Assembly: GCA_008080745.1 (NCBI GenBank)
Contig: SHMX01000003.1
Span: 1-32,000, forward strand
Direction: 5' to 3'
Length of the DNA: 32,000 nt
DNA from: Candidatus Thorarchaeota archaeon
GTDB lineage: Archaea; Asgardarchaeota; Thorarchaeia; Thorarchaeales; Thorarchaeaceae
In this document: piece after piece, positions 1,169 through 13,805 of the stretch
How positions within the stretch are numbered: the stretch's first letter is position 1
How the letters are laid out: each line of letters begins with the position of its first letter
Translations under genes and position numbers: made by a program
Notes under the pieces: model-generated
The model's input: only the letters and a program-made list of their open reading frames with translations
Database searches by the model: none
Told to the model about the DNA's origin: nothing

Positions 1169-2446
1169 CTATTTTACTTCTGCTACATGACATGAACAGC
1201 TTATACAGGGATCGTATGCACGAATCAATCTGTTAAGCATTAATTCAAGCTCGGGTCGTGGTAAGTCCGCAATTGATGGATATAGAGCTCTAACGTCCTC
1301 TTCCATGTTCAGATAATTCATGGTGGTGGGTGCAATGATGTCAGCCTTCTTCAAGAGACCGTCATCACCGAACTCGTAAGAGTGTACCAATGAACCACGT
1401 GGTGCCTCAGTGATATGTGTACCGAACCCAGCCTTAGGCACAGTCTCAAACTCGTGCCATTCTAGGTCGCTCTTTAGCAATGCATCAATGGTGTCAATAG
1501 CCATATCAAAGACCTGAGCGGTCTCGATTAGCTGAGCAGCATTATTATGGAATGTATTGTAGCTTGGTAATTTGATTCCAAGCTGACTAAGAGCCTTCTT
1601 GGCAAATGGTGAGAGCTGATCTGTATTATTATTCAATCGCGGTAGTGCACCAACAAAGAATCCATGACCATCGTGAACTCCAGACTTAGCAAAGCTATAA
1701 GCTGGTTGATCTTCACCAATTATTTCCTTGTATTTTTCAACAGGAACTCGATGACCCTCGGAAGTGATCAAATCTCCATCCACAAGTGCGTACTCATCAT
1801 CACGCTTGATGGACACATATGTCGTCTTTCGTTCAAAGTCTGGTTCTTCCAATGTAGCCCAAACATCTAGACATTTTTGAAGGTCCGCTCGAGCTTCATT
1901 GATTCGCTCCTTTATCTCATCAAGAGTTTGATGGGTTGGGTAGCTTGTGAAACCACCCACAGCAGTTGAAACCTGATGAACCTCACGTCCACCTGTCAGA
2001 ATCTGCATGTCATTACCGAGTTTTTTCAGTTTAAGAGCAATCTTGACAACTTCTGGAAAGTCTGCAGCAGCAGAGATAACACTCTCATGGCCAACATAGT
2101 CAGGAAGAGCGAGATATAAAGCGTGTAGAATGTGCGATTCAATATACTCACCCCAGACAAGGAGTCTGCGTAGATCAACAACTTGTTGGTCCACCTTAAT
2201 ACCCATTGCTTTCTCGACAGCCTTGGTTGATGCAACTCGATGAGAGGCACTACAGATTGCACATATACGACATGCCATCTCAGGAACCTCTGTGTATTCA
2301 CGACCGCGGAGGAATGCTTCAAATAAGCGAGCTCCCTCATCAACAGCCATCTTTACATCAACTAGTTCTTTGTCTTTAGTTGTAACGTAGAGAGAACCAT
2401 GTCCCTCTACTCTTGCAATGTGTTTGATATCAATACTTTCAGTCAT
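1169..2446 (-). CDS. hydA: Group 3b [NiFe]-hydrogenase (sulfhydrogenase) large/alpha subunit
   Basis: N-terminal ARVEGHG, L1 motif RICAICSASH, EAPRGSLVH, and L2 motif RAYDPCISCSCH with a short cleavable tail (VAEVK). Last gene of a beta-gamma-delta-alpha operon. Confidence 0.96.
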   Translation of the reverse strand: MTESIDIKHIARVEGHGSLYVTTKDKELVDVKMAVDEGARLFEAFLRGREYTEVPEMACRICAICSASHRVASTKAVEKAMGIKVDQQVVDLRRLLVWGEYIESHILHALYLALPDYVGHESVISAAADFPEVVKIALKLKKLGNDMQILTGGREVHQVSTAVGGFTSYPTHQTLDEIKERINEARADLQKCLDVWATLEEPDFERKTTYVSIKRDDEYALVDGDLITSEGHRVPVEKYKEIIGEDQPAYSFAKSGVHDGHGFFVGALPRLNNNTDQLSPFAKKALSQLGIKLPSYNTFHNNAAQLIETAQVFDMAIDTIDALLKSDLEWHEFETVPKAGFGTHITEAPRGSLVHSYEFGDDGLLKKADIIAPTTMNYLNMEEDVRALYPSIADLPRPELELMLNRLIRAYDPCISCSCHVAEVK

Positions 2447-3219
2447 TAGAATTCCAACTCCTTGAATTCCTCCATATCAGCCACAGATGGACAATACTTC
2501 AGGAATTTCCGTTTTACATCTTCACTAGTTGCTCCTATCTTTTTCAGGATTTCAACTTCTGCAGCCCAGTTAGCCTCAGGAGCAGGACCTCGACATCCTT
2601 CACATGCTGCACCGTATGTTGGACAGAGTGCATCACAGCCAGCTTGGACAACGGGCCCCATGCAGAACTTCCCCTCCTTCAGAAGACAGACATTTTCCTT
2701 TGCCTTGCACTCACCACAGACACTGTATTGTGGAATGTAAGGGGTCTTTCCTATGAGGAGTGCTTTTACAGCTTCTACAAATTCAGCTTTGTCCATTGGA
2801 CACCCTGGAAGTGAATAATCGACTTTGACGTAATGCGAAACTGGTTTGATGTCAATTGCATCAATACGTTCATAGTCATCGCCATAGACCTCTTTCTTCC
2901 ATTCATCAGTATCTGCAAGGTTACGCAGAGCAGGAAGGCCACCATGAGTGGCACAAGCACCTATTGCTACTAAGACACCAGATTTCTCCCGGATTTTCTT
3001 GAGTCGTTCGATATCGGTTGATTTAGCTATTGATCCTTCAACGAAAGCTACATCCCAAGGGCCATCATCATTTTCAGCCTTTGCCATGACCCAGGAGGTG
3101 ATATCAACGAGGCTGATAATGTCGAGCAAGTGATCCTCAAGATTCAAGATATTGAGCTGACAACCAGCACATCCTGTAAATCCAAAGATACCTACGGTTG
3201 GCTTGCCATTATTCCCCAT
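2446..3219 (-). CDS. hydD: Group 3b hydrogenase small/delta subunit (NuoB/20-kDa-like Fe-S fold)
   Basis: TGCAGCQ, VEGSI, IGACATHGG, LPGCP and C-terminal CGEC...CL...CMG...C...C..CEGCRG ligands. TAATG overlaps with both neighbours. Confidence 0.95.
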   Translation of the reverse strand: MGNNGKPTVGIFGFTGCAGCQLNILNLEDHLLDIISLVDITSWVMAKAENDDGPWDVAFVEGSIAKSTDIERLKKIREKSGVLVAIGACATHGGLPALRNLADTDEWKKEVYGDDYERIDAIDIKPVSHYVKVDYSLPGCPMDKAEFVEAVKALLIGKTPYIPQYSVCGECKAKENVCLLKEGKFCMGPVVQAGCDALCPTYGAACEGCRGPAPEANWAAEVEILKKIGATSEDVKRKFLKYCPSVADMEEFKELEF

Positions 3220-4067
3220 TAGATCGCCTCCTGCATCTGCTCAACTTGGAACAAAGTGAATACAGGTCCATCAATACAGGTGAGTTTGTGACCAATCTGG
3301 CAGTGTGCACATTTGCCTACACCACATTTCATCTTTCTTTCAAGAGAGAGAAGAATCTGATCCTTACCTACACCAATGTCTAGTAGTTCCTTTACAACGA
3401 ACTTGTAGACAATAGGTGGACCACAGACCACTGCGCTGAGATTTTCAGTTTTGAACTTCTTCTTCTTGAATAAGGTAGTAACAACACCAACATTGCCTTT
3501 CCAATCATCGTCGCCTGCATCTACAGTTACGTGGAGATCGATATCATCTAGTGCTTCCCAGGCTGCAAGTTCGTCCTTGAAGAGGAGCAAATCGGGTGAG
3601 CGAGTTCCATAGAAGATAGTTACTTCACCAAAATCATCCCGATTATCAATAACGTAGTTAATCAATGAACGTAGAGGAACTAGACCGATTCCACCTGCAA
3701 CAAACAGAATGTCACGTCCCTTGAGAGACTCTGTTGGGAATCCATTACCATAAGGGCCTCGGATACCTACAACATCTCCAACTTCAAGCTCATGAATCTT
3801 GTTAGTTACATCACCAGTCTTACGAATACCTAGTTCAAGATAACCACGTTTTGTAGGACTAGAACTGATTGAGAATGGAGCTTCACCAATACCAAACATG
3901 CTGAGTTGGACAAATTGACCAGGTTTGTAAGTAAATAGGTCTTTCATTCTGCCTTCAACAAATTCGAAGGTGAACAGAGTTTCCCACTCGGTCATCTTTC
4001 TTTTCTTAATCAACTTTGCTAGATCAGGAACGTATACATTTTCTTTCTTAATCTGTAATTGAACCAT
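3219..4067 (-). CDS. hydG: Group 3b hydrogenase gamma subunit (FAD/NAD(P)-binding, [2Fe-2S])
   Basis: KPGQFV, PFSISS, RGPYGNGF, FVAGGIGLVPLRS, VCGPP and C-terminal MKCGVGKCAHC...CIDGPVF. Confidence 0.95.
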   Translation of the reverse strand: MVQLQIKKENVYVPDLAKLIKKRKMTEWETLFTFEFVEGRMKDLFTYKPGQFVQLSMFGIGEAPFSISSSPTKRGYLELGIRKTGDVTNKIHELEVGDVVGIRGPYGNGFPTESLKGRDILFVAGGIGLVPLRSLINYVIDNRDDFGEVTIFYGTRSPDLLLFKDELAAWEALDDIDLHVTVDAGDDDWKGNVGVVTTLFKKKKFKTENLSAVVCGPPIVYKFVVKELLDIGVGKDQILLSLERKMKCGVGKCAHCQIGHKLTCIDGPVFTLFQVEQMQEAI

Positions 4068-5144
4068 CTATTTCCCTCCCTGAGCTGTGGGAGCTACTTC
4101 CCAGATTCCTGAGAGCTCCTTGAGTACATCTTTGATGCTGATATCACTGGGACAAGCGGCGGTACAACGACCACAACCCGTACATCCTAGAATGCCTTGA
4201 TCATGGGCAAAACCTCTCATCTTATGATAGAATCGATACTTGAAACGAGCTGCAGGTGACTCTCTAAAATTATGTCCACCAGCAACAAGTGCGAACTCTT
4301 GGAATAAGCAAGCATCCCATTTCCTTGTTCTATCTGCAGATGTTAGGGAGAGATCAAGGTCATCCACCACATCATAACAATAACAGGTTGGACAAACCAT
4401 AGCACATGCACCACAATTGACACAATCCTCTGCCATTTTATCCCAAAATTCATGATGGAATGATAGGTCAAGATATTCATTGATACCTTCAACATCTACC
4501 TCATGTGGTAATGACTCATTCTTGTGCTTGAGGGCTGCTTTGAATGCTCCAAAGTCTTCTGGTCCTGCCTCTTGGAAAATATCTCTAGCCATGTGAACTA
4601 GATGTTCACCTTTAGCAGTACCAACTTGTACATAGTATCTATCTCCAGATATTGGAGTCAAGAAGAGGTCATAACCTTCAACAACATGATGGGTATTCAT
4701 TGATCGACAGAAACCATATTCACAAGAATCTAAACAATTTATTCCAACAATAGTGGTTTTCTCCCGTCGTGCGAAATAGTATTTGTCTGTATATTCTCCG
4801 CCAAATACTCTATCAAGATGCAGAATTCCGTTAAGGTCACAGGAATGCACTGCCATCAATAAACGAGGACGCATTGCACGAAGCTCGTCTAGGGTATCCT
4901 CAACTTTATTTTCCTCAAGGTCAAAACTCATCATGACCTCGTTCTGCGGTTGGAAATATTTGCGAGGGGATAGAATGGTGCTATCATAATCCATGACAAG
5001 ATTGTCAGGATTATCTATCTTCCCGAAAACGTGCTTACTCCTTTTCTTTACTGGTCCGAATACATCATACTCGTTTGACGCAGCCTCTACGAGCTTTTTG
5101 ATGTCGGTCCGCTTCATTACATAGGGTGGACTCATAATTATCAT
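4068..5144 (-). CDS. hydB: Group 3b hydrogenase beta subunit (AsrA-like 4Fe-4S dicluster protein)
   Basis: CVNCGACAMVCPTCYC, WDAC and CTGCGRCTAACP. Its stop abuts the hydG ATG. Confidence 0.94.
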   Translation of the reverse strand: MIIMSPPYVMKRTDIKKLVEAASNEYDVFGPVKKRSKHVFGKIDNPDNLVMDYDSTILSPRKYFQPQNEVMMSFDLEENKVEDTLDELRAMRPRLLMAVHSCDLNGILHLDRVFGGEYTDKYYFARREKTTIVGINCLDSCEYGFCRSMNTHHVVEGYDLFLTPISGDRYYVQVGTAKGEHLVHMARDIFQEAGPEDFGAFKAALKHKNESLPHEVDVEGINEYLDLSFHHEFWDKMAEDCVNCGACAMVCPTCYCYDVVDDLDLSLTSADRTRKWDACLFQEFALVAGGHNFRESPAARFKYRFYHKMRGFAHDQGILGCTGCGRCTAACPSDISIKDVLKELSGIWEVAPTAQGGK

Positions 5145-5367: not shown

Positions 5368-5859
5368 ATGGCTGACGATGTCACCAGAAAAACACCTGAT
5401 GGATTGGAATTCACATTCATTCGAGAATTAAGAAGAGAATCGAAGGATGTTAGGGTTCGATTCACAGTACTAGAAATTTCGGAACCGAGAGAAGTATTTT
5501 CGCGAAGGTCCAATCGCATATATTTAGTTGCTAATGCATTACTAGCTGATGAAACAGCTAAAGTAACACTTCAGTTGTGGAACTCAGATATTGATAAGAT
5601 TGAGGTAGGAGAAACCTATGTTCTTGAGAATGCGTACATATCAGTTTACAATGAATGCATGTATCTCAATAGAGGGTACACAGGAGGTATTATTCAAAGC
5701 CATGAATCAATTGAAGTTCCCTCTGATCTCAAAAATATGAGTCTGCCTTTTGTGGGTGTAAAAGTATCAAAGAGAACATCAGATGTGAAAACTGGAAAAA
5801 CATTCCGAGGAGAACCAGGAAGAGCAGCAAAGGGATACTGCTCATCCAAAGAGTTCTAA
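5368..5859 (+). CDS. ssb: Single OB-fold single-stranded DNA-binding protein (crenarchaeal SSB/RPA-like)
   Basis: VRVRFTVLEISEPRE...ALLADETAKVTLQLWN...GETYVLENAYISVYNECMYLN follows the Sulfolobus-type SSB pattern (GDETGRVKLTLWG...IENAW). Confidence 0.85.
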   Translation: MADDVTRKTPDGLEFTFIRELRRESKDVRVRFTVLEISEPREVFSRRSNRIYLVANALLADETAKVTLQLWNSDIDKIEVGETYVLENAYISVYNECMYLNRGYTGGIIQSHESIEVPSDLKNMSLPFVGVKVSKRTSDVKTGKTFRGEPGRAAKGYCSSKEF

Positions 5860-5862
5860 GTT

Positions 5863-8800
5863 TCAACTTACCATTAGACCAAGTGCAATGGTTCCACCAA
5901 AGATTGCAATTGAGGCGACTAGTGCAATAAGCACGACGAGCCGCAGATAAACAAGATTTGGATTATCTTTTTCCTTCTCTCGAATAAAGAGAGCAAAGAA
6001 TAGGAATGACACCGCTAATGCTAACATCAGACTTTGCAGGAAGATTCCAAAGACTGAGGTATAAGCAAAACCCGTCACTCCAAAGAATAAGAGAGAGAAG
6101 AAGACGTATTTGGAATCTTTACCAATCACAGGAAATAGGACAATCGATGCCATAACAATTGTTAGATATCCTGACGCAACCAGAGAAAAGGTAGCTAACT
6201 GGGAAGCAATGTAAACTATCACACCTAGACTGATAGATTTCGTAATCCATAGGGGGTTACCAAGTTTCTTTGGTAGATAGCCAAGGGAGGTCGAGATTGT
6301 ATAAAGAACAGATGTTGCTAAGACACTTAGTGTAAAAACCAAGATCTGAATATCCAGTGTAACTGCCGCAATTAGTAGTCTATCCAATAGGATTACACCT
6401 AATGCTGCAGGAATAGGAACCCAAAATATAGTACGCCACTTTTGTGTCTTATCTGCTTCAGAAATAACAACCAATCCAGCAATGGACAGAGCCAAGATAC
6501 CAAGAGAACCAGCAAGTAGAAATTCACCATATTCTGTGAGCCATGAGGCAGTAGTAGCACCTAGACCAATTGATATGAGAAATAGGCTGACCGAACCAAA
6601 AGAGGTCTTGACCTGTCGCCGGATAATAGCAATAACAAGTAGCATCATCCCCAGAATACTCATTGGAAGGGATATGCTGGGAACCACATAGAGAGAACCA
6701 GTGGGAGGCATGGCTACTAGTTCACTGAAGAATGGAAAACTGAATACTGCTATTGTGATAGTAAATGCAGACGAGAATACTCCCCACATGATGTAACCAA
6801 ATCGGTCAAAGAGATAGCGAAGTGTACCCGTGAAATCACGTAGGAGTTGACCAAGTAAAGAACCAAGATTCTTCACTACATTAATGATTCGTTGAATCTG
6901 ATTAGGAATCAGAGGGGCCATCACCATTAATCCAACTACAAGTCCAGCTATAATGGAGTATGCAATATTGATAGTTGTGAATAGAAGAGTACCAATGGAA
7001 ACCGTTGGAATGAGTGTGAAGCTGATCAACCAATGTGCAGTTTTCTTCATAGATTCAAGGTGATTGAATGAAAATACCGGATAGCTAATCACACAAGATA
7101 ATACCACCACAGCTCCTACTTGATAGCCCAGGGAGAGGATATCTGTAAATATATCTGGAATTACGAAATACAATATTGCCTGATACAATCCGAATACGAA
7201 TAAAACTCCGCTTGGAGTTCTCAAACGTATTCCATCTTCTAGTGATAGTATCGTATTCGCAACGAGATACAAAATTCCAGTTATGAGGTAGATAGTCGCT
7301 ATAAACCCAATTGTCGATCTAATGTTGAGACCCAAAACCAAACCACCAGAAGTATTACTGAAAAGAGCAGTTGCAATCAAAATTCCCAAAATAGGTGGTA
7401 TAGTACTGGAAAAGAAGAATATATTCCTGCGAATAAAATCTGCAGAGTGTTCGATAAAACGTATGGTAGGATCGATTAATGAGGGTATAGCCAAAATATA
7501 CCAGAATGCAAATGTCCAGATAGCATAGCTGACTGGTTCCAGTGAAAATCTAGCTAACCAGAACAGTCCAGCCATTGAGCTAGCAAATCCGAGGTTCAAT
7601 GCTGAAGGCATCCAGCTAGGTTGCTCAGGAAGGGTGAGATAATACAAACCGGAACCAATGCAAAGAACCGCACTAGTTGCGAATAGTCCAAATATTGGGT
7701 TCCATTCCAAATATGAACCAGCTGAATAAGTTAGAAGAGCAGCTCCTGCTATGCCTGGTAGCAAAGTCATGTGACCTGCTGAACTATTGCTATGAGTTCT
7801 TAGCTGACTTTCGTATTTCAAGAAGACAGGTGTTGTAAGCAGACTCATCAGAAATAGAGAAACCCCGAGTGTTCCTGAAATATTAGCAGGAGGAATAAGA
7901 GTAGTATATTCCCAACCTGTGATATAAGCTGCTAACAGAATAGATGTAATTCCGGTTTGAATCTCCCAGATGTGGCTAAAGTTTTCCCACTTCACAGAAT
8001 GAAGGTACAATCCAAATAGAGAAAGAAGGGATAATCCAGCAGCTCCAGCAACAACACCTGTAAATGGTAAAATGGGATAGGAATAGGAAATCCAAATTGA
8101 CTCTAACCAAATTATGGATGAAACAACGAAACTCTGAACAACAATCCCACTTTTCATATCTTGCCCAATAGGCCGTATTTGAGTCAGGAGGAAGGTCGTA
8201 GTCCACGTAGTAATGAATAGAATAGGAGAGGAGGAGATACCAAGAAGATACCAAACTAAAGAAACAAGGGTTGATAGTGTTATACCAAACAGCCCCCATC
8301 CAATAGTATGATATTTCTCAACAAGCGATACATCGAGAAGAATCAACAATACAGGAATAGCAGAGATATAAAGAGAAATACCAAATGGAGCTAAAAGAAT
8401 ATCGTAGAAAAAGTGGAATATTGCAATTGAAGATAGTATTGCTACCCCATTGATAGACCCAACCAATATTAGATCAGATAACTCACTCCAGATCGATAGC
8501 AAATTCATAAGAATAAAGACAAATGCTGCAACTTCAATTGAAAGAACTAAACTTACAGGAAGAATTAGTAGACCTGTGCCAACTGCAAGAATTGAAGAAC
8601 GCACTAACGAAAATGCGATTGAGAGGTTTGATAGGTCATTATCTTTGGAAGGTGTGATTCGTATCAATTCAGAAACAACTAGCACACTTGCCAAAACCGC
8701 AAAGATGCCAAAGCCCTGAAGAAGATAGTACATCCCCAACCCCACTAGAATACTGAAGCCCCACCATGTATAGCTCTTTCTGAGCTCTTTTGGCATAGAC

Positions 8801-11800
8801 AAAGAAGCCATTTCAAAGACAAGAAATCCAAGCCCGACCAACACTGGATCACGAAGTATTGATAACAGGTTCCAAAATATGACAGCCAGAGTGAGAGTGA
8901 TAACAAGAGTGTAACTCACGATGATTCTTTTTTCACGAGGTACAAAGAAAGCTCCTAATAGAATGGTTTCGATTGATAACAATATAATTTTTGAAAGGAT
9001 ATCAATTGGTAGTAGATATATTCCTAGAACAGTCGAAGCGGTTATAGTGGCTATGAATGCAGGAATGACTGAACCAGATATATGTATTTCAGAGGATCCC
9101 AACATAGAGAAAAGTGATACTAAGCAAACCCAACCAAGAATGGCGACAATAGGATCGGGAGGGTTCATGTAGGTTATAATTTCAAAACTGATAGTCCCTA
9201 CAAACAATAGAAACACTCCAGTCAACAAAGACGGATATTGTTCCTTTTTGATATGAAGAATGGGAATCCACAAAATAGTGAATAACACCATATACAATGA
9301 ACCTATTATTAGAATATCAAAACCCATCTGCAGAAGAGAAGTATAGGTAGAAGATGCCACATAATATGTTAGACCAAAGAATACGGCACCGAAGAAAGGT
9401 ACAGCGTTACGATTTATGAATTTCACAATTTGCTTTATCCCAACTAAAATAGTTGTGCCAATAGTCTGTAATGTTCTAATGTAGAGAGAATATGCGTATG
9501 GAATCGGAGCTAAAATACAGACTAATCCACTTAGTATTAGGTCAAGAGTAATCATGTATGTGAATAATACTGCAGGAATAGCTGAGAGACCTATATACAT
9601 TCCACCTACTACCCTCTTTGGTAATCCGATAACTCTGTAACCTGTAGCCCCAATCCCCGAAGCTATAGAGGTTAGAAGAATAGCATGAATTGTGCTCATT
9701 AAGGGCGATACTAATAGATAAAATTCGTTGGTCACTGCAGCCAATATCAGTGAATATCCAATAACTGGTAATGCAGTAGAGATACTCTCAGAGAACTCAT
9801 TTCTTCCCAAGAGGAGTATACCCATTGAACTAATGGATGCTATCAGTATTTGACTAATAGGATTGACGAGTGCTACGTAGGTGTAGACTAATCCACCTGT
9901 AGCTATAGATAGACCAACGACTGAAGCCTGTGTGAGTATTGGAGATGGACGGTCTATTTTTACCAGCATCCCGAGATAGAGTATGAAGAAGCAACAGCCG
10001 AGAACGAATGCAGTTGGTATGAAAGACATTCCAAGATAGGGTATTAGCACTCCATAACCAAGAGACAAGCAGAGAAAAATCGAAAAAACTGCCCAGGATA
10101 TAAAAATGAACTTGAGCAAAATTTGTCCAGCAACAACAGCAGCATCATAAGCAACCTTACCGGCCTTGGTAAATCCGTTCTTGATGGTGGAACCAATCCA
10201 TCCCAAACCTCTGCGGATTACAGAAATAATTCTAACAACACCATTTTTGATTTTATTCCCAACTAAAATTAGACCCGCATGTATCCATCTTCCGAAACGT
10301 ATCCCAGCCCCTATGAGAATATGTCCAACTCGGATATAGCCGGGATGTGCTACCGGAATTGGGAGAAGAACCAAAGCTACAATGATGACAAGAGGACTGA
10401 TTATTGATAGATATGTTGCTTGAATATTCCATGATATCCAGAGACCTCCAACGAATCCTGGAAGATATGGAATGGAAGTTTTTCTTAGTGAGACCCCATT
10501 CTTCTGAAGTGCACTAGTAGCCAACATCAAGAGAAGAGCAATTGGCAATGCCTCTCCAATATTCATCGCAATAGGACCGATTAGATACCACAGTATTAGG
10601 GCAGAAAGACTGGCCAGAAAACAGACTGATCCAATACTAAGGAGCTGACCTCTTCTCTTCAACTTAGTGAGAGCCCCGACACCCAGAGTTCCACAACCTG
10701 CAAAAATCACACCAGATAACGCCGCTAACCCCATAAAGGGATGATTGAAACTTAGAAATAGAGGATAGAGAAGGTATGCAATTGTACCAGTGAAGATTAC
10801 ATTAAGTGCAGTTCCAGATATTAGAATGTGCTGCTTAACCCAATATTTCATTCTTCGAAAGGCATTTGTGAAAGATTCCCAAATAGTACGAAAAACCCTT
10901 CGTACTCTTTTGAAAAGTCCCGTTATACCTGCTAAGAAAGTCATTGATGAAAACGAAATAGATAGAGCTATTGGAAACAAGTAAAATTGAGTCCATAAGT
11001 ATAGTGATAATGCTGCAGTGATTACCACCATAGTGCCAAATATTCGTACTATAATTCCTTCAAAGCTTCGTTTTAGAGTACCACCTAATCTCAGATATAC
11101 GGGAAATGGCATCAGAATCAGAAGTGAAATCATAATGCTAAGTGGAGCGAACAACGGAATGAACTGGGATACCAATCCCCAACTAGTCTGAGATGTTAGG
11201 AAAATAAAAACTGTAGGAGTTCCCAATGCTATCAATAGTAGACCAAATGCAGCTAAAATTTGGGCTAGTTCCACATCAATAATCCATTCTGCAGCTTCCA
11301 TTTTGATGTGCAAAGGATCTTCTTTAGTTGTATGAGTCTCAGCATGTGGTTCAAAATTACCTTCTTTAACCAAACTGCTGTTGGAAACGATTGGAGGTGT
11401 CATGGGAATTTGGGAGATTACCCGTAATTGAAAACGACGTAGAATCCTAGTTGTAGCTAGTAAGCTTAGACCCGTTCCCATCGAGAAGACAGACAGGTAC
11501 AATAGCAAGTCTATCATAGGATATAGAACTCGTGATTGTTCTACTAGAATCAGACCAAGACCTACGGAAAGTATCACACTAATAATGGGTCCTAATATTT
11601 TGTTTCGAAGAACTACCTGTGTAATCAAGAGGTATGCGCTTAGCGTAATCAGAGCCAAGAAAACACTATGAAGGGGGCTAAATAGGTTGAAAGTTAGAAT
11701 GTAGACGAATAAAGGCCCAGTGAGAACGATTAGGATTCCTAACCCCTTCTGAATGTTCAACCAAGTTGATTCTGTTAGATTTTCATTCCGATTTAAACTG

Positions 11801-12150
11801 GTAGAAACAACCAAAGTCATCCCTAGTAGGACGTGAAGTCCAAGAGCTATTGTAGCAAAAGAAGATATTGTCATGTATGCAGCTATACATGCCATACCTG
11901 AACCAGCTAAAACAGCCACTGAACCAATATATCGATGATTAATTCGATTCAGTAATAGTCCAGCTAACATTACTCCTACCGAGAGCGACACTAACATCCG
12001 TATAGAGTAGTCACTGATAATAGGTACAGTAATGAAAAATGTAGCTAAAAGTACCGCAAGGGGTACAATAATTACCAATATTATGAACCTTAATACCGCT
12101 AGTAAGAGATCGGCCAACCTAGCGGCGCGTACTGTTCGATGGTCGTCCAT
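5863..12150 (-). CDS. Giant (2095 aa) polytopic membrane protein of unknown function
   Basis: Uninterrupted 6.3-kb ORF made almost entirely of hydrophobic helices (well over 40 by eye) with short loops. GAGG precedes the ATG. No catalytic motif recognised. Confidence 0.85.
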   Translation of the reverse strand: MDDHRTVRAARLADLLLAVLRFIILVIIVPLAVLLATFFITVPIISDYSIRMLVSLSVGVMLAGLLLNRINHRYIGSVAVLAGSGMACIAAYMTISSFATIALGLHVLLGMTLVVSTSLNRNENLTESTWLNIQKGLGILIVLTGPLFVYILTFNLFSPLHSVFLALITLSAYLLITQVVLRNKILGPIISVILSVGLGLILVEQSRVLYPMIDLLLYLSVFSMGTGLSLLATTRILRRFQLRVISQIPMTPPIVSNSSLVKEGNFEPHAETHTTKEDPLHIKMEAAEWIIDVELAQILAAFGLLLIALGTPTVFIFLTSQTSWGLVSQFIPLFAPLSIMISLLILMPFPVYLRLGGTLKRSFEGIIVRIFGTMVVITAALSLYLWTQFYLFPIALSISFSSMTFLAGITGLFKRVRRVFRTIWESFTNAFRRMKYWVKQHILISGTALNVIFTGTIAYLLYPLFLSFNHPFMGLAALSGVIFAGCGTLGVGALTKLKRRGQLLSIGSVCFLASLSALILWYLIGPIAMNIGEALPIALLLMLATSALQKNGVSLRKTSIPYLPGFVGGLWISWNIQATYLSIISPLVIIVALVLLPIPVAHPGYIRVGHILIGAGIRFGRWIHAGLILVGNKIKNGVVRIISVIRRGLGWIGSTIKNGFTKAGKVAYDAAVVAGQILLKFIFISWAVFSIFLCLSLGYGVLIPYLGMSFIPTAFVLGCCFFILYLGMLVKIDRPSPILTQASVVGLSIATGGLVYTYVALVNPISQILIASISSMGILLLGRNEFSESISTALPVIGYSLILAAVTNEFYLLVSPLMSTIHAILLTSIASGIGATGYRVIGLPKRVVGGMYIGLSAIPAVLFTYMITLDLILSGLVCILAPIPYAYSLYIRTLQTIGTTILVGIKQIVKFINRNAVPFFGAVFFGLTYYVASSTYTSLLQMGFDILIIGSLYMVLFTILWIPILHIKKEQYPSLLTGVFLLFVGTISFEIITYMNPPDPIVAILGWVCLVSLFSMLGSSEIHISGSVIPAFIATITASTVLGIYLLPIDILSKIILLSIETILLGAFFVPREKRIIVSYTLVITLTLAVIFWNLLSILRDPVLVGLGFLVFEMASLSMPKELRKSYTWWGFSILVGLGMYYLLQGFGIFAVLASVLVVSELIRITPSKDNDLSNLSIAFSLVRSSILAVGTGLLILPVSLVLSIEVAAFVFILMNLLSIWSELSDLILVGSINGVAILSSIAIFHFFYDILLAPFGISLYISAIPVLLILLDVSLVEKYHTIGWGLFGITLSTLVSLVWYLLGISSSPILFITTWTTTFLLTQIRPIGQDMKSGIVVQSFVVSSIIWLESIWISYSYPILPFTGVVAGAAGLSLLSLFGLYLHSVKWENFSHIWEIQTGITSILLAAYITGWEYTTLIPPANISGTLGVSLFLMSLLTTPVFLKYESQLRTHSNSSAGHMTLLPGIAGAALLTYSAGSYLEWNPIFGLFATSAVLCIGSGLYYLTLPEQPSWMPSALNLGFASSMAGLFWLARFSLEPVSYAIWTFAFWYILAIPSLIDPTIRFIEHSADFIRRNIFFFSSTIPPILGILIATALFSNTSGGLVLGLNIRSTIGFIATIYLITGILYLVANTILSLEDGIRLRTPSGVLFVFGLYQAILYFVIPDIFTDILSLGYQVGAVVVLSCVISYPVFSFNHLESMKKTAHWLISFTLIPTVSIGTLLFTTINIAYSIIAGLVVGLMVMAPLIPNQIQRIINVVKNLGSLLGQLLRDFTGTLRYLFDRFGYIMWGVFSSAFTITIAVFSFPFFSELVAMPPTGSLYVVPSISLPMSILGMMLLVIAIIRRQVKTSFGSVSLFLISIGLGATTASWLTEYGEFLLAGSLGILALSIAGLVVISEADKTQKWRTIFWVPIPAALGVILLDRLLIAAVTLDIQILVFTLSVLATSVLYTISTSLGYLPKKLGNPLWITKSISLGVIVYIASQLATFSLVASGYLTIVMASIVLFPVIGKDSKYVFFSLLFFGVTGFAYTSVFGIFLQSLMLALAVSFLFFALFIREKEKDNPNLVYLRLVVLIALVASIAIFGGTIALGLMVS

Positions 12151-12405
12151 CCTCTATCATCGCCTCTCTCATTGATTCGATGTGAATTCAATGCGTGCGT
12201 GCTCCTCAAGCCTCGAACCAATGAGCAAGTAAACATTTTGCGCGACTGCTTATAACCTAATATTGATTGTTTGGGGGTTTTTACTAGATGAAATGCGCAA
12301 ATGGTATTGCACAAACTTTGAACTAGGTAGTTGATAAAAATATCCACAGGACAGATTTATCTCTTTTGAAGAACAAAATAGTATGTACGCTTTGAGGGAA
12401 AAACC

Positions 12406-12906
12406 GTGCCAGAAAAAGTTCAATGCCGATATTGTGGCAAAGAAAACAAAGCTGATGAGACAATATGTGTCCATTGTGGAGCAGGACTCTCTGATGCATT
12501 CAAGAAAGTATTTTGTGATCGATGTGGAGTACCATTATCAGAAGACATAGACCCATTTGGTAAATGTGTAGAATGTCAAAAACCAGTATATCTTTGTGAA
12601 AAACACAAGAAGAAGGTAGTTGGTGAAGAAGTTTACTGCAAGGAACATGAATCTGAATGTTTCATAGCCACTGCAGTTATTGGTACACCACTCGACCCAC
12701 ATATAGACCTTCTAAGGGATTTCCGTGACGAATGGCTCCAATCAAACCCACTAGGCCGGGCAGCGGTCTATACATATTATGAAATTTCGCCACCTATAGC
12801 CAACGCAATTAGACACAATTCAATTCTTCGCCGAGTTTTCAGAAGGGTAGTAGTTGAACCTGCATTGTCAATTGCAAAGACTATTCTTGGAAGAGAAGAA
12901 ACTTAA
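12406..12906 (+). CDS. Zinc-ribbon protein with C-terminal CFI-box-CTERM-like domain
   Basis: CRYC/CVHC, CDRC/CVEC and CEKH/CKEH pairs, followed by CFIATAVIGTPLDPHIDLLRDFRDEWL...GRAAVYTYYEISPPIA. GTG start with a GAGGG RBS. Confidence 0.82.
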   Translation: MPEKVQCRYCGKENKADETICVHCGAGLSDAFKKVFCDRCGVPLSEDIDPFGKCVECQKPVYLCEKHKKKVVGEEVYCKEHESECFIATAVIGTPLDPHIDLLRDFRDEWLQSNPLGRAAVYTYYEISPPIANAIRHNSILRRVFRRVVVEPALSIAKTILGREET

Positions 12907-12941: not shown

Positions 12942-13805
12942 ATGAGAGATAAGAAAGAATCTCTACCATATCCTCTAGTAGTTCTTACAGGAAGGATGAG
13001 ACTAAGTGGTCTTTCCTGGGTGTTAGCTGAGAGTATAACTCAACAGATTAGAAAAAAGAATCCTGATGACTTGATTCAGACCTGTATAGATCATATAACT
13101 CCATTCTCTACTGAAGCTGCAGAACGATTCGAATTTCTCTCCGAATTCAGTAATTCAAGAAAGGAAGATATTCCCTCGATTATTCTCTCACTTGAAGGAG
13201 CTTCTGCTACTGGAAAATCAATTCTTTCAATGGGTATGATTCGTGCCCTTTCGGCATCGAGAATCGTTAGCACTGATACTATTCGACAAGTCCTACGAGC
13301 TAAAGGTTCCGTCGAAAAACATCCTGAACTCTATTGTCACACGTATCAAGCTCATAGGCATAAACAAGTAGGAGATGAAGAACTTAATCCAGTAGTAAGA
13401 GGTTTCCTCGCTCAATGTGAGCAAATTACACCAACAATTCGTAAATTAGTGAAACGTCTTACCAATGAAGGAACAACTGGTCTCATTGAAGGAGTGCATA
13501 TCATACCAGGAACACTGCAGGAGATTGCTGAGGGAGTGCTAGAGATACTGATTCATCCACCTGAATTCGTCCATCGTGATATGTTCCTCTCAAAGGGAAC
13601 TGACACTAAATTGAAGACAGTTTCAAAAGACGAGTCAATTCGGCTGAGTGAGTATGAAGCAACTAGGAAAATTCAGAACTTCATGCTAGATAGAGCACAA
13701 GTACACGAATGTGCTATTATAGAGATGAAAGACTTCGATGAAGCGGAATCAGCTATATGTGACCTTGTGGTTTCAAAGGTTTCAGAAATAATAATGAAAG
13801 AATAG
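12942..13805 (+). CDS. pgk2: 2-phosphoglycerate kinase-like P-loop kinase
   Basis: Degenerate ATP-cone-like N-terminus, Walker A LEGASATGKS, STDTIRQVLR and IEGVHIIPG, matching the archaeal 2-PGK pattern. Substrate specificity is not proven. Confidence 0.72.
   Translation: MRDKKESLPYPLVVLTGRMRLSGLSWVLAESITQQIRKKNPDDLIQTCIDHITPFSTEAAERFEFLSEFSNSRKEDIPSIILSLEGASATGKSILSMGMIRALSASRIVSTDTIRQVLRAKGSVEKHPELYCHTYQAHRHKQVGDEELNPVVRGFLAQCEQITPTIRKLVKRLTNEGTTGLIEGVHIIPGTLQEIAEGVLEILIHPPEFVHRDMFLSKGTDTKLKTVSKDESIRLSEYEATRKIQNFMLDRAQVHECAIIEMKDFDEAESAICDLVVSKVSEIIMKE

Follow-up and report, generated by a model that had tools for sequence, protein, structure and literature searches.

The 32,000-nucleotide stretch of DNA analysed here, referred to below as the window, comprises positions 1 to 32,000 of contig SHMX01000003.1 (assembly GCA_008080745.1) of a Candidatus Thorarchaeota archaeon and carries on its minus strand a gene, P0001, for a membrane protein of 2,095 residues with about 67 predicted transmembrane (TM) helices, here called the giant protein. 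Judging from profile comparisons, approximately 45% of its chain stems from a module of about 235 residues that was duplicated in tandem, and its architecture appears to lie outside every described family. The gene is found in a single family of Thorarchaeota, where it is flanked by a divergently oriented gene for a small protein that combines Zn-ribbons with a CFI-box-CTERM domain, designated the partner. As a tentative reading, the giant protein may serve as a scaffold embedded in the membrane.

Repeat modules, topology and linkers of the giant protein

The module consists of a junction of the type P-x-P..[Y/H]..Y, a basic amphipathic helix assumed to lie in the plane of the membrane, and about eight TM helices. 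Four copies, designated U1 to U4, are present in the giant protein (Table 1), and U4 falls within its best-conserved part. The repeat first became visible in an alignment of 14 sequences, in which four orthologues have an insertion of approximately 236 residues after residue 892, bounded at both ends by the motif P-I-P-V-A-[Y/H]-x-x-Y and a basic helix. The extra copy of one of them (L037) was compared with its surroundings by Smith-Waterman alignment and reached a score of 236 with the next 236 residues, which are equivalent to U3 (z = 23.8 over shuffles; reversed control 54), and a score of 148 with the previous 236 residues (z = 10.2).

A first-round module profile matched residues 597-879 of the giant protein over the full length of the profile (independent E-value, iE, 5e-6) and residues 418-551 (hmmsearch iE 2.3e-4), corresponding to U2 and U1, neither of which was yet contained in the profile, and it had no match in reversed sequences. 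The iterated profile matched residues 1767-1998 (U4) at iE 5e-8 prior to the inclusion of this copy, and the controls, i.e. reversed sequences and the NuoL/M/N-type subunits of the window, never scored better than 0.002. When the final profile of 49 members was compared with the family alignment by hhalign, P values of 1e-42, 4e-40, 4e-35, and 3e-11 were obtained for the four copies, as opposed to about 1e-3 outside of them and for the reversed control. The copy number follows the length of the protein: four copies are found in proteins of 2,033-2,130 residues, five in proteins of 2,241-2,295 residues, and six in a member of 2,447 residues. The internal duplication that had been postulated in the original prediction is thus borne out by profile hidden Markov models (HMMs) with reversed and Nuo controls and by an orthologue copy number of four to six.

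The same prediction described the protein as built from repeated modules, and this description holds for the modular 45%, whereas the remaining 55% shows no significant repeat. Residues 1-407, the centre (1113-1743), and the C-terminal 95 residues gave borderline module signals at most (iE 0.005-0.008), which do not allow them to be called repeats; the weak module-like signal of the N-terminal domain (residues 1-247) had an iE of 0.005. The modules had been recognised by basic amphipathic segments followed by similar TM starts. All five strings quoted for these starts are present (residues 437-446, 677-690, 911-921, 1572-1582, and 1780-1793), and four of the five sites begin supported copies, whereas the fifth (1564-1582) remains at control level. 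The pentapeptide W[AG]VFS does occur twice, as WAVFS at residues 686-690 and as WGVFS at residues 1789-1793, and the two occurrences are aligned with each other in the module alignment (A5).

A BLAST self-search of the giant protein detected nothing, and an hhalign self-comparison based on five sequences gave no repeat signal (off-diagonal score 42.9 vs 42.2 for the reversed control). Long, drifting self-alignments with shifts of 176 to 291 reflect a generic hairpin periodicity and were discarded as evidence for repeats. Searches for shorter homologous proteins, and searches with the module alignment, yielded none among the matches listed. A free-standing membrane protein of 308 residues (grand average of hydropathy, GRAVY, 1.22), which corresponds to one module plus the tail and has 39% identity to residues 1792-2089 of the giant protein, is encoded in genome G387 (L049:10046-10972, plus strand); this genome has neither the giant gene nor the CFI-box partner.

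The helices were counted from the DSSP helices of two AlphaFold2 half-models (residues 1-1125 and 1055-2095), which were built on 14-sequence alignments, in combination with hydropathy; as the parity of charges described below would not reveal two helices too many or too few between one basic loop and the next, the number has to be read as 67 plus or minus an even number. Together with the intact open reading frame (ORF), this count agrees with the almost entirely TM protein that had been proposed for positions 5863-12150. The lysine and arginine residues (K/R) of the loops are distributed very unevenly, with 96 in even-numbered and 6 in odd-numbered loops (59 vs 6 for short loops alone), and all 25 loops with at least two K/R are even-numbered. 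Projection of the helix boundaries on 13 orthologues gave 90-108 K/R in even vs 5-9 in odd loops for every sequence. Based on this parity and the positive-inside rule, the N-terminus is predicted to be cytoplasmic and the C-terminus to be outside. Since the number of helices per module is even, the copies should be arranged in parallel in the membrane and each linker should be cytoplasmic; according to the parity, all five basic amphipathic segments are on the K/R-rich, cytoplasmic side. The outside loops comprise only a few residues each, and the chain has no soluble domain. The single polar loop, expected near residues 235-290, was placed at residues 248-292.

The longest of the amphipathic linkers, located in U2 (residues 607-676), is composed of 11-residue repeats. 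Its self-identity has maxima at offsets of 11 and 22 residues, its hydrophobic moment is highest at the angle of a 3-11 helix (98.2 degrees per residue), and its length in orthologues differs by -11, -33, and -44 residues. Other linkers differ by +11 or +22 residues, and some length differences are not multiples of 11. Conservation in at least 13 of the 14 sequences is observed for 138 of the 2,095 aligned positions, which are mostly occupied by G, L, P, W, and F. Only a few polar residues deep within the membrane are conserved, namely H106, which is invariant and located 8 residues deep in TM4, R1184, which is buried 11 residues deep in TM37, and E1350, which is buried 10 residues deep in TM43; all of them are outside the proven modules.

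Distribution of the gene and searches against known families

The giant gene is present in one copy in a genome of 3.16 Mb that is 98% complete, and its G+C content (0.38-0.41) is that of the flanking DNA. Leucine, isoleucine, valine, and phenylalanine account for 43% of the encoded protein, which has a GRAVY of 1.06. Uninterrupted orthologous frames of 2,033-2,295 residues were found in 13 other genomes; the proteins are collinear from end to end, are 25-55% identical to the giant protein and have conserved ends, and the metagenome-assembled genomes (MAGs) are independent and derived from different studies. On the strength of these intact frames and this range of identity in 13 genomes, the gene is regarded as real and under selection. 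Two orthologues deviate from this pattern: that of G318 (L045:7061-13314) is split into two overlapping frames of 1,256 and 839 residues, and that of G384 (L043:6820-10974) is interrupted by an in-frame TAG; a frameshift, decay or an assembly error could be the cause. The DNA of the window is also present in two runs of a single study on marine-sediment metagenomes.

When 5.8 billion proteins were searched by means of a word index, only four relatives were returned, which are unnamed or "hypothetical" and come from MAGs labelled as Loki- or Thorarchaeota. In an exhaustive HMM search of 1.84 billion cluster representatives with the C-terminal half as query (alignment A3), 38 matches were obtained, all of which are full-length relatives or fragments thereof from one Thorarchaeota family, and no second protein family was matched. 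Among 400 genomes of the phylum, clear matches were confined to the GTDB family of the window, in which 25 of 85 genomes were positive, a count that includes two partial or weak matches (G387 and G388). A single short match outside the family in this search (E 3e-4) was judged spurious. The taxonomic distribution, which was to be checked according to the original prediction, is therefore restricted to about 25 of the 85 genomes of one Thorarchaeota family. The protein family, defined here as the Thorarchaeal 67-TM family, is characterised by full-length collinearity, module copies, and a divergent Zn-ribbon/CFI-box neighbour, and the giant protein of the window has all of these features.

No Pfam-A family was assigned to the giant protein by hmmscan at E<=1, the Pfam Piezo models included, and comparisons with NCBIfam, PADLOC, and PHROGs, which cover transporters, enzymes, and secretion, gave zero families; likewise, no match to PDB chains was obtained with a sequence profile. 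These results are in line with the earlier statement that the protein has no recognisable transporter, enzyme or extracellular domain. The suggested relationship to DUF2339/DUF2157-type repeats was not found (Pfam, E<=1): DUF2339 (PF10101; gathering threshold 33.6 bits) had no match in the entire genome at E<=10 in a search that was positive in four control genomes.

For the fold searches, a match required an E-value of at most 0.001 in Foldseek or a VIA-align Z-score clearly above the helical background (about 13). With the half-models of more than 1,000 residues and moderate confidence as queries, the best Foldseek E-values were 0.15-0.18, obtained for soluble alpha-solenoids, and the best VIA-align Z-scores were 9.2 and 10.4 (root-mean-square deviation 4.8-9.9 Å), obtained for prenyl synthases and Bro1 domains and below the helical background; only generic arrays of helical hairpins were returned. 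The ESM Atlas contained sub-threshold matches to unnamed clusters only. Taken together, the sequence searches suggest that the architecture lies outside every described family, and the notion of an undescribed family is upheld by the lack of a match in the model libraries and by only 38 representatives among 1.84 billion.

The partner gene and other neighbours

The partner (P0043) carries its Zn-ribbons at the N-terminus (match to Zn_Ribbon_1), and its residues 85-150 match positions 1-66 of the 69 positions of NF041770 with 86.2 bits (cut-off 40). ORF clustering revealed that the partner gene is adjacent to and divergent from the giant gene in all 16 loci and that it is the sole constant neighbour, as all others vary. 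It is the only CFI-box gene of the genome, and both genes co-occur in 20 genomes, with the exceptions being mostly contig-edge cases. In other Asgard families, the CFI-box-CTERM domain occurs sporadically (G044, G134, G217, G250, and others) in proteins of 134-601 residues with other architectures. The CFI-box genes found elsewhere in Asgard archaea, including Lokiarchaeial genomes, are far from any giant gene, and the distant placement in the latter rules out a general tie of the domain to giant proteins. A PDB sequence search with the partner returned generic Zn-ribbons only, and a full-text literature search on CFI-box and CFIATAA found no papers.

Three further elements of the neighbourhood recur in other loci. 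A cluster of four genes at positions 1169-5144 (minus strand) is sulfhydrogenase-like and encodes a 4Fe-4S protein, a FAD/NAD-binding protein, a NiFe small-subunit-like protein, and a NiFe large subunit; it is found near the giant gene in five loci. A small Ssb-like OB-fold protein is encoded at positions 5368-5859 (plus strand) by a gene that converges on the 3' end of the giant gene and is a neighbour in 8 of the 16 loci. Directly downstream of the partner gene, positions 12942-13805 (plus strand) encode a protein of 287 residues with a weak P-loop (AAA_33-like) signal; this gene is kept downstream of the partner in five loci and in genome G320.

Table 1 Features of the giant protein and of its gene locus in the window, and loci of the Lokiarchaeial giant proteins. 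Positions refer to the window unless a locus is named
Feature	Residues	Positions	Strand	Remarks
Giant-protein gene (P0001)		5863..12150	minus	ORF of 2,095 residues starting with ATG; no internal stop
N-terminal 8-TM domain	1-247	11410..12150	minus	Best-predicted part, pLDDT (predicted local distance difference test) 75-93; invariant intramembrane H106
Polar acidic cytoplasmic loop (predicted)	248-292	11275..11409	minus	pLDDT <50; even-numbered loop
4-TM segment	293-407	10930..11274	minus	Conserved cytoplasmic motif R354/R361/E364
Module copy U1	408-596	10363..10929	minus	Amphipathic helix 412-440 and 6 TM (shortened); hhalign P 3.4e-11
Module copy U2	597-881	9508..10362	minus	PIPVAH..Y motif, long amphipathic linker, 8 TM; hhalign P 3.7e-40
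Amphipathic linker of 11-residue repeats	607-676 (in U2, longest)	10123..10332	minus	Periodicity analysis
Module copy U3	882-1112	8815..9507	minus	PIPYAY..Y motif, amphipathic helix 888-914, 8 TM; seed of the module profile
Central region without detectable repeat	1113-1743	6922..8814	minus	About 22 TM; short basic helix 1559-1577
Module copy U4	1744-2001	6148..6921	minus	Amphipathic helix 1745-1783 and 8 TM; hhalign P 1e-42
C-terminal 3-TM tail	2002-2095	5866..6147	minus	Weak partial-module signal, iE 0.008
Divergent intergenic region		12151..12405	.	255 bp between the giant gene and the partner gene, common to both
Partner gene (P0043)		12406..12906	plus	166 residues, Zn-ribbons and CFI-box-CTERM; NF041770, Zn_Ribbon_1
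Lokiarchaeial giant proteins		L056:9825-19796; L057:9969-19241; L058:9955-19950; L059:9654-16433	minus (all)	

Possible functions and comparison with named systems

We tentatively consider the giant protein as a membrane-embedded scaffold which could organise, bend, stiffen or sense a large patch of membrane in a manner similar to the blades of Piezo, a possible function that we would not yet call probable. This reading is based on a chain that lies almost completely within the membrane, on the lack of a catalytic or transporter signature, and on growth by parallel eight-helix bundles with in-plane tethers. The bundles would stand in rows within the membrane, and the basic in-plane amphipathic helices would wedge into the inner leaflet and tether them. 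Like the repeats and in-plane helices of the Piezo blade, such rows would occupy a large membrane patch and bend, stiffen or sense it, whereas the non-repeat core and the Zn-ribbon partner might provide the specific function or a link to the cytoplasm.

Several observations weigh against this scaffold. The confidence of the half-models is moderate, with pLDDT values of 70.2 (residues 1-1125) and 71.5 (residues 1055-2095) and predicted template modelling scores of 0.41-0.44. In the closed genome G320 (L047:10692-12731), the partner gene is kept between its usual OB-fold and 287-residue-type neighbours and the giant gene is missing, which looks like a clean natural deletion of the latter; pairing of the two genes is thus conserved, not obligatory, and synteny inside one family is weak evidence for a physical interaction. 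The patchy occurrence of the giant gene within its family implies that it is dispensable and non-essential, and no RNA runs were listed when they were sought for this DNA. Finally, an ion path, a catalytic site, and a structural role are equally compatible with the buried residues R1184, E1350, and H106.

The last point leads to the alternative of an ion channel or transporter, in which the conserved non-repeat core would form the pathway, possibly gated by tension, and the modules would be accessory arms. This idea agrees with the position of these charged residues, which are invariant or nearly so, are buried in the membrane, and belong to non-repeat parts (R1184 in TM37, E1350 in TM43, and H106 in TM4), and with the resemblance of repeated arms and a distinct core to the layout of Piezo (cf. 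PMC9256749). We nevertheless consider such a function unlikely: no channel or transporter family or fold was matched in the library searches and the half-model fold searches, and the repeats are parallel rather than inverted, so that the usual alternating-access design is absent. A similarly doubtful proposal takes the dense TM array for a lipid handler that binds, sequesters or redistributes lipids, such as damaged lipids or lyso-lipids. Its model is Arc3A, for which 35 TM helices are predicted and which lacks catalytic residues and is accompanied by a small partner protein; Arc3A prevents the accumulation of lysophospholipids, and the unusual number and density of its helices have been linked to the mechanism (PMC8926400). 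The giant protein shares the gross features of Arc3A, being nearly all TM, lacking an enzyme motif, and having a small conserved neighbour, but there is no sequence relation to DUF2339 at the level of the protein (E<=1) or the genome (E<=10) and no lipid-enzyme neighbour that is conserved across the loci, and with archaeal ether lipids and no known phospholipase antagonism here, the specific role of Arc3A is uncertain.

It is very improbable that the giant protein is an artefact, i.e. the product of an assembly or annotation error, of a decaying gene, or of a series of small genes for membrane proteins that were read as a single frame. Such an origin could account for the orthologues that are split or interrupted (1,256 plus 839 residues in G318, in-frame TAG in G384) and for the occurrence of a single module as the free-standing 308-residue protein of G387. 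It is opposed by the 13 independent MAGs with uninterrupted frames of 2,033-2,295 residues and conserved ends, by the K/R parity along the whole chain, by the single copy per genome, and by the presence of the same DNA in two metagenome runs. The giant protein is of interest in several respects: it has almost no mass outside the bilayer and represents a tractable new architecture for structural biology; its rule of growth is evident, as entire eight-helix modules and linker units of 11 residues have been added or removed during evolution; it is accompanied by a small, cytoplasmic partner; it is limited to Asgard archaea, whose membrane biology bears on the origin of eukaryotes; and it might serve to test how extended patches of membrane can be organised or shaped by integral proteins.

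In one genus of another Asgard family, the module profile also matched the last ~170 residues of frames of 2,281-3,341 residues. The C-terminal module shared with these Lokiarchaeial giant proteins, which are uncharacterised and Asgard-specific, was detected with iE 3.5e-12 and an HH P value of 2.9e-8, compared with 0.06 for the reversed control. Of four examples (Table 1), three are complete (3,090-3,331 residues) and one is ended by the contig edge (2,259 residues). They have a G+C content of 29-31% and a GRAVY of 1.1-1.15, are almost wholly TM, and one of them, MBY8989327.1 from a Lokiarchaeota MAG, is annotated as "hypothetical protein"; no Pfam domain was found in the two complete proteins that were scanned (L056 and L057). 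They bear a tandem repeat of their own of about 250 residues with basic segments (P 1e-54), which has no match to the Thorarchaeal module, so that only the C-terminal module is shared with the giant protein, and there is no adjacent CFI-box gene. In all four examples, the gene is immediately followed by a Liv-type ABC transporter operon in the same orientation. It is conceivable, albeit rather improbable, that "transmembrane solenoids" with 67 to ~100 helices per chain form an ancient superfamily that is specific to, and common to, the Thor- and Lokiarchaeial lineages of the Asgard archaea; its members would shape the membrane or sense its tension, and their chains would lengthen by eight-helix modules and 11-residue amphipathic repeats. 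If this were true, the closest prokaryotic relatives of eukaryotes would possess a principle of membrane remodelling that has not been described in any organism.

Amphipathic helices composed of 11-residue (3-11) repeats are characteristic of alpha-synuclein, apolipoproteins, and perilipins. The linkers of the giant protein resemble them in the 11-residue periodicity, the basic/hydrophobic pattern, and the variable number of repeats; they differ in being short tethers between TM bundles, whereas proteins of the alpha-synuclein type are free and peripheral, and there is no sequence homology. Arc3A (DUF2339, Pseudomonas aeruginosa PA5114) and the giant protein are both dense many-TM proteins with a variable number of TM helices, no catalytic motif, and a small adjacent partner. 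Arc3A is bacterial, however, has about half the number of TM helices, and is paired with a lipoprotein that is unrelated to the Zn-ribbon/CFI-box protein, and homology of the two large proteins is not detectable.

No membrane protein found so far is said to have more TM passes than Piezo, with 38 in each chain and 114 in the trimer (PMC9256749). If the count of 67 holds, the chain of the giant protein far exceeds the 38 passes of Piezo, the highest number among characterised membrane proteins; as Omnitrophota proteins of very large size, for which many helices are predicted, have been reported (bioRxiv 10.1101/2023.11.21.568195), no absolute record is claimed. Piezo chains were absent from the matches of the fold searches, in which long half-models of moderate confidence were used, and the likeness is an analogy only. 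Piezo1, Piezo2, and the giant protein have in common a very large polytopic chain, repeated parallel TM units, in-plane helices at the cytoplasmic leaflet, and a separate non-repeat part. The Piezo blade consists of nine 4-TM units, which are joined to a C-terminal pore module in a trimer, whereas the giant protein contains 8-TM modules (6 TM in U1) in four copies, has 67 instead of 38 TM helices per chain, carries no extracellular cap domain, and uses linkers of 11-residue repeats.

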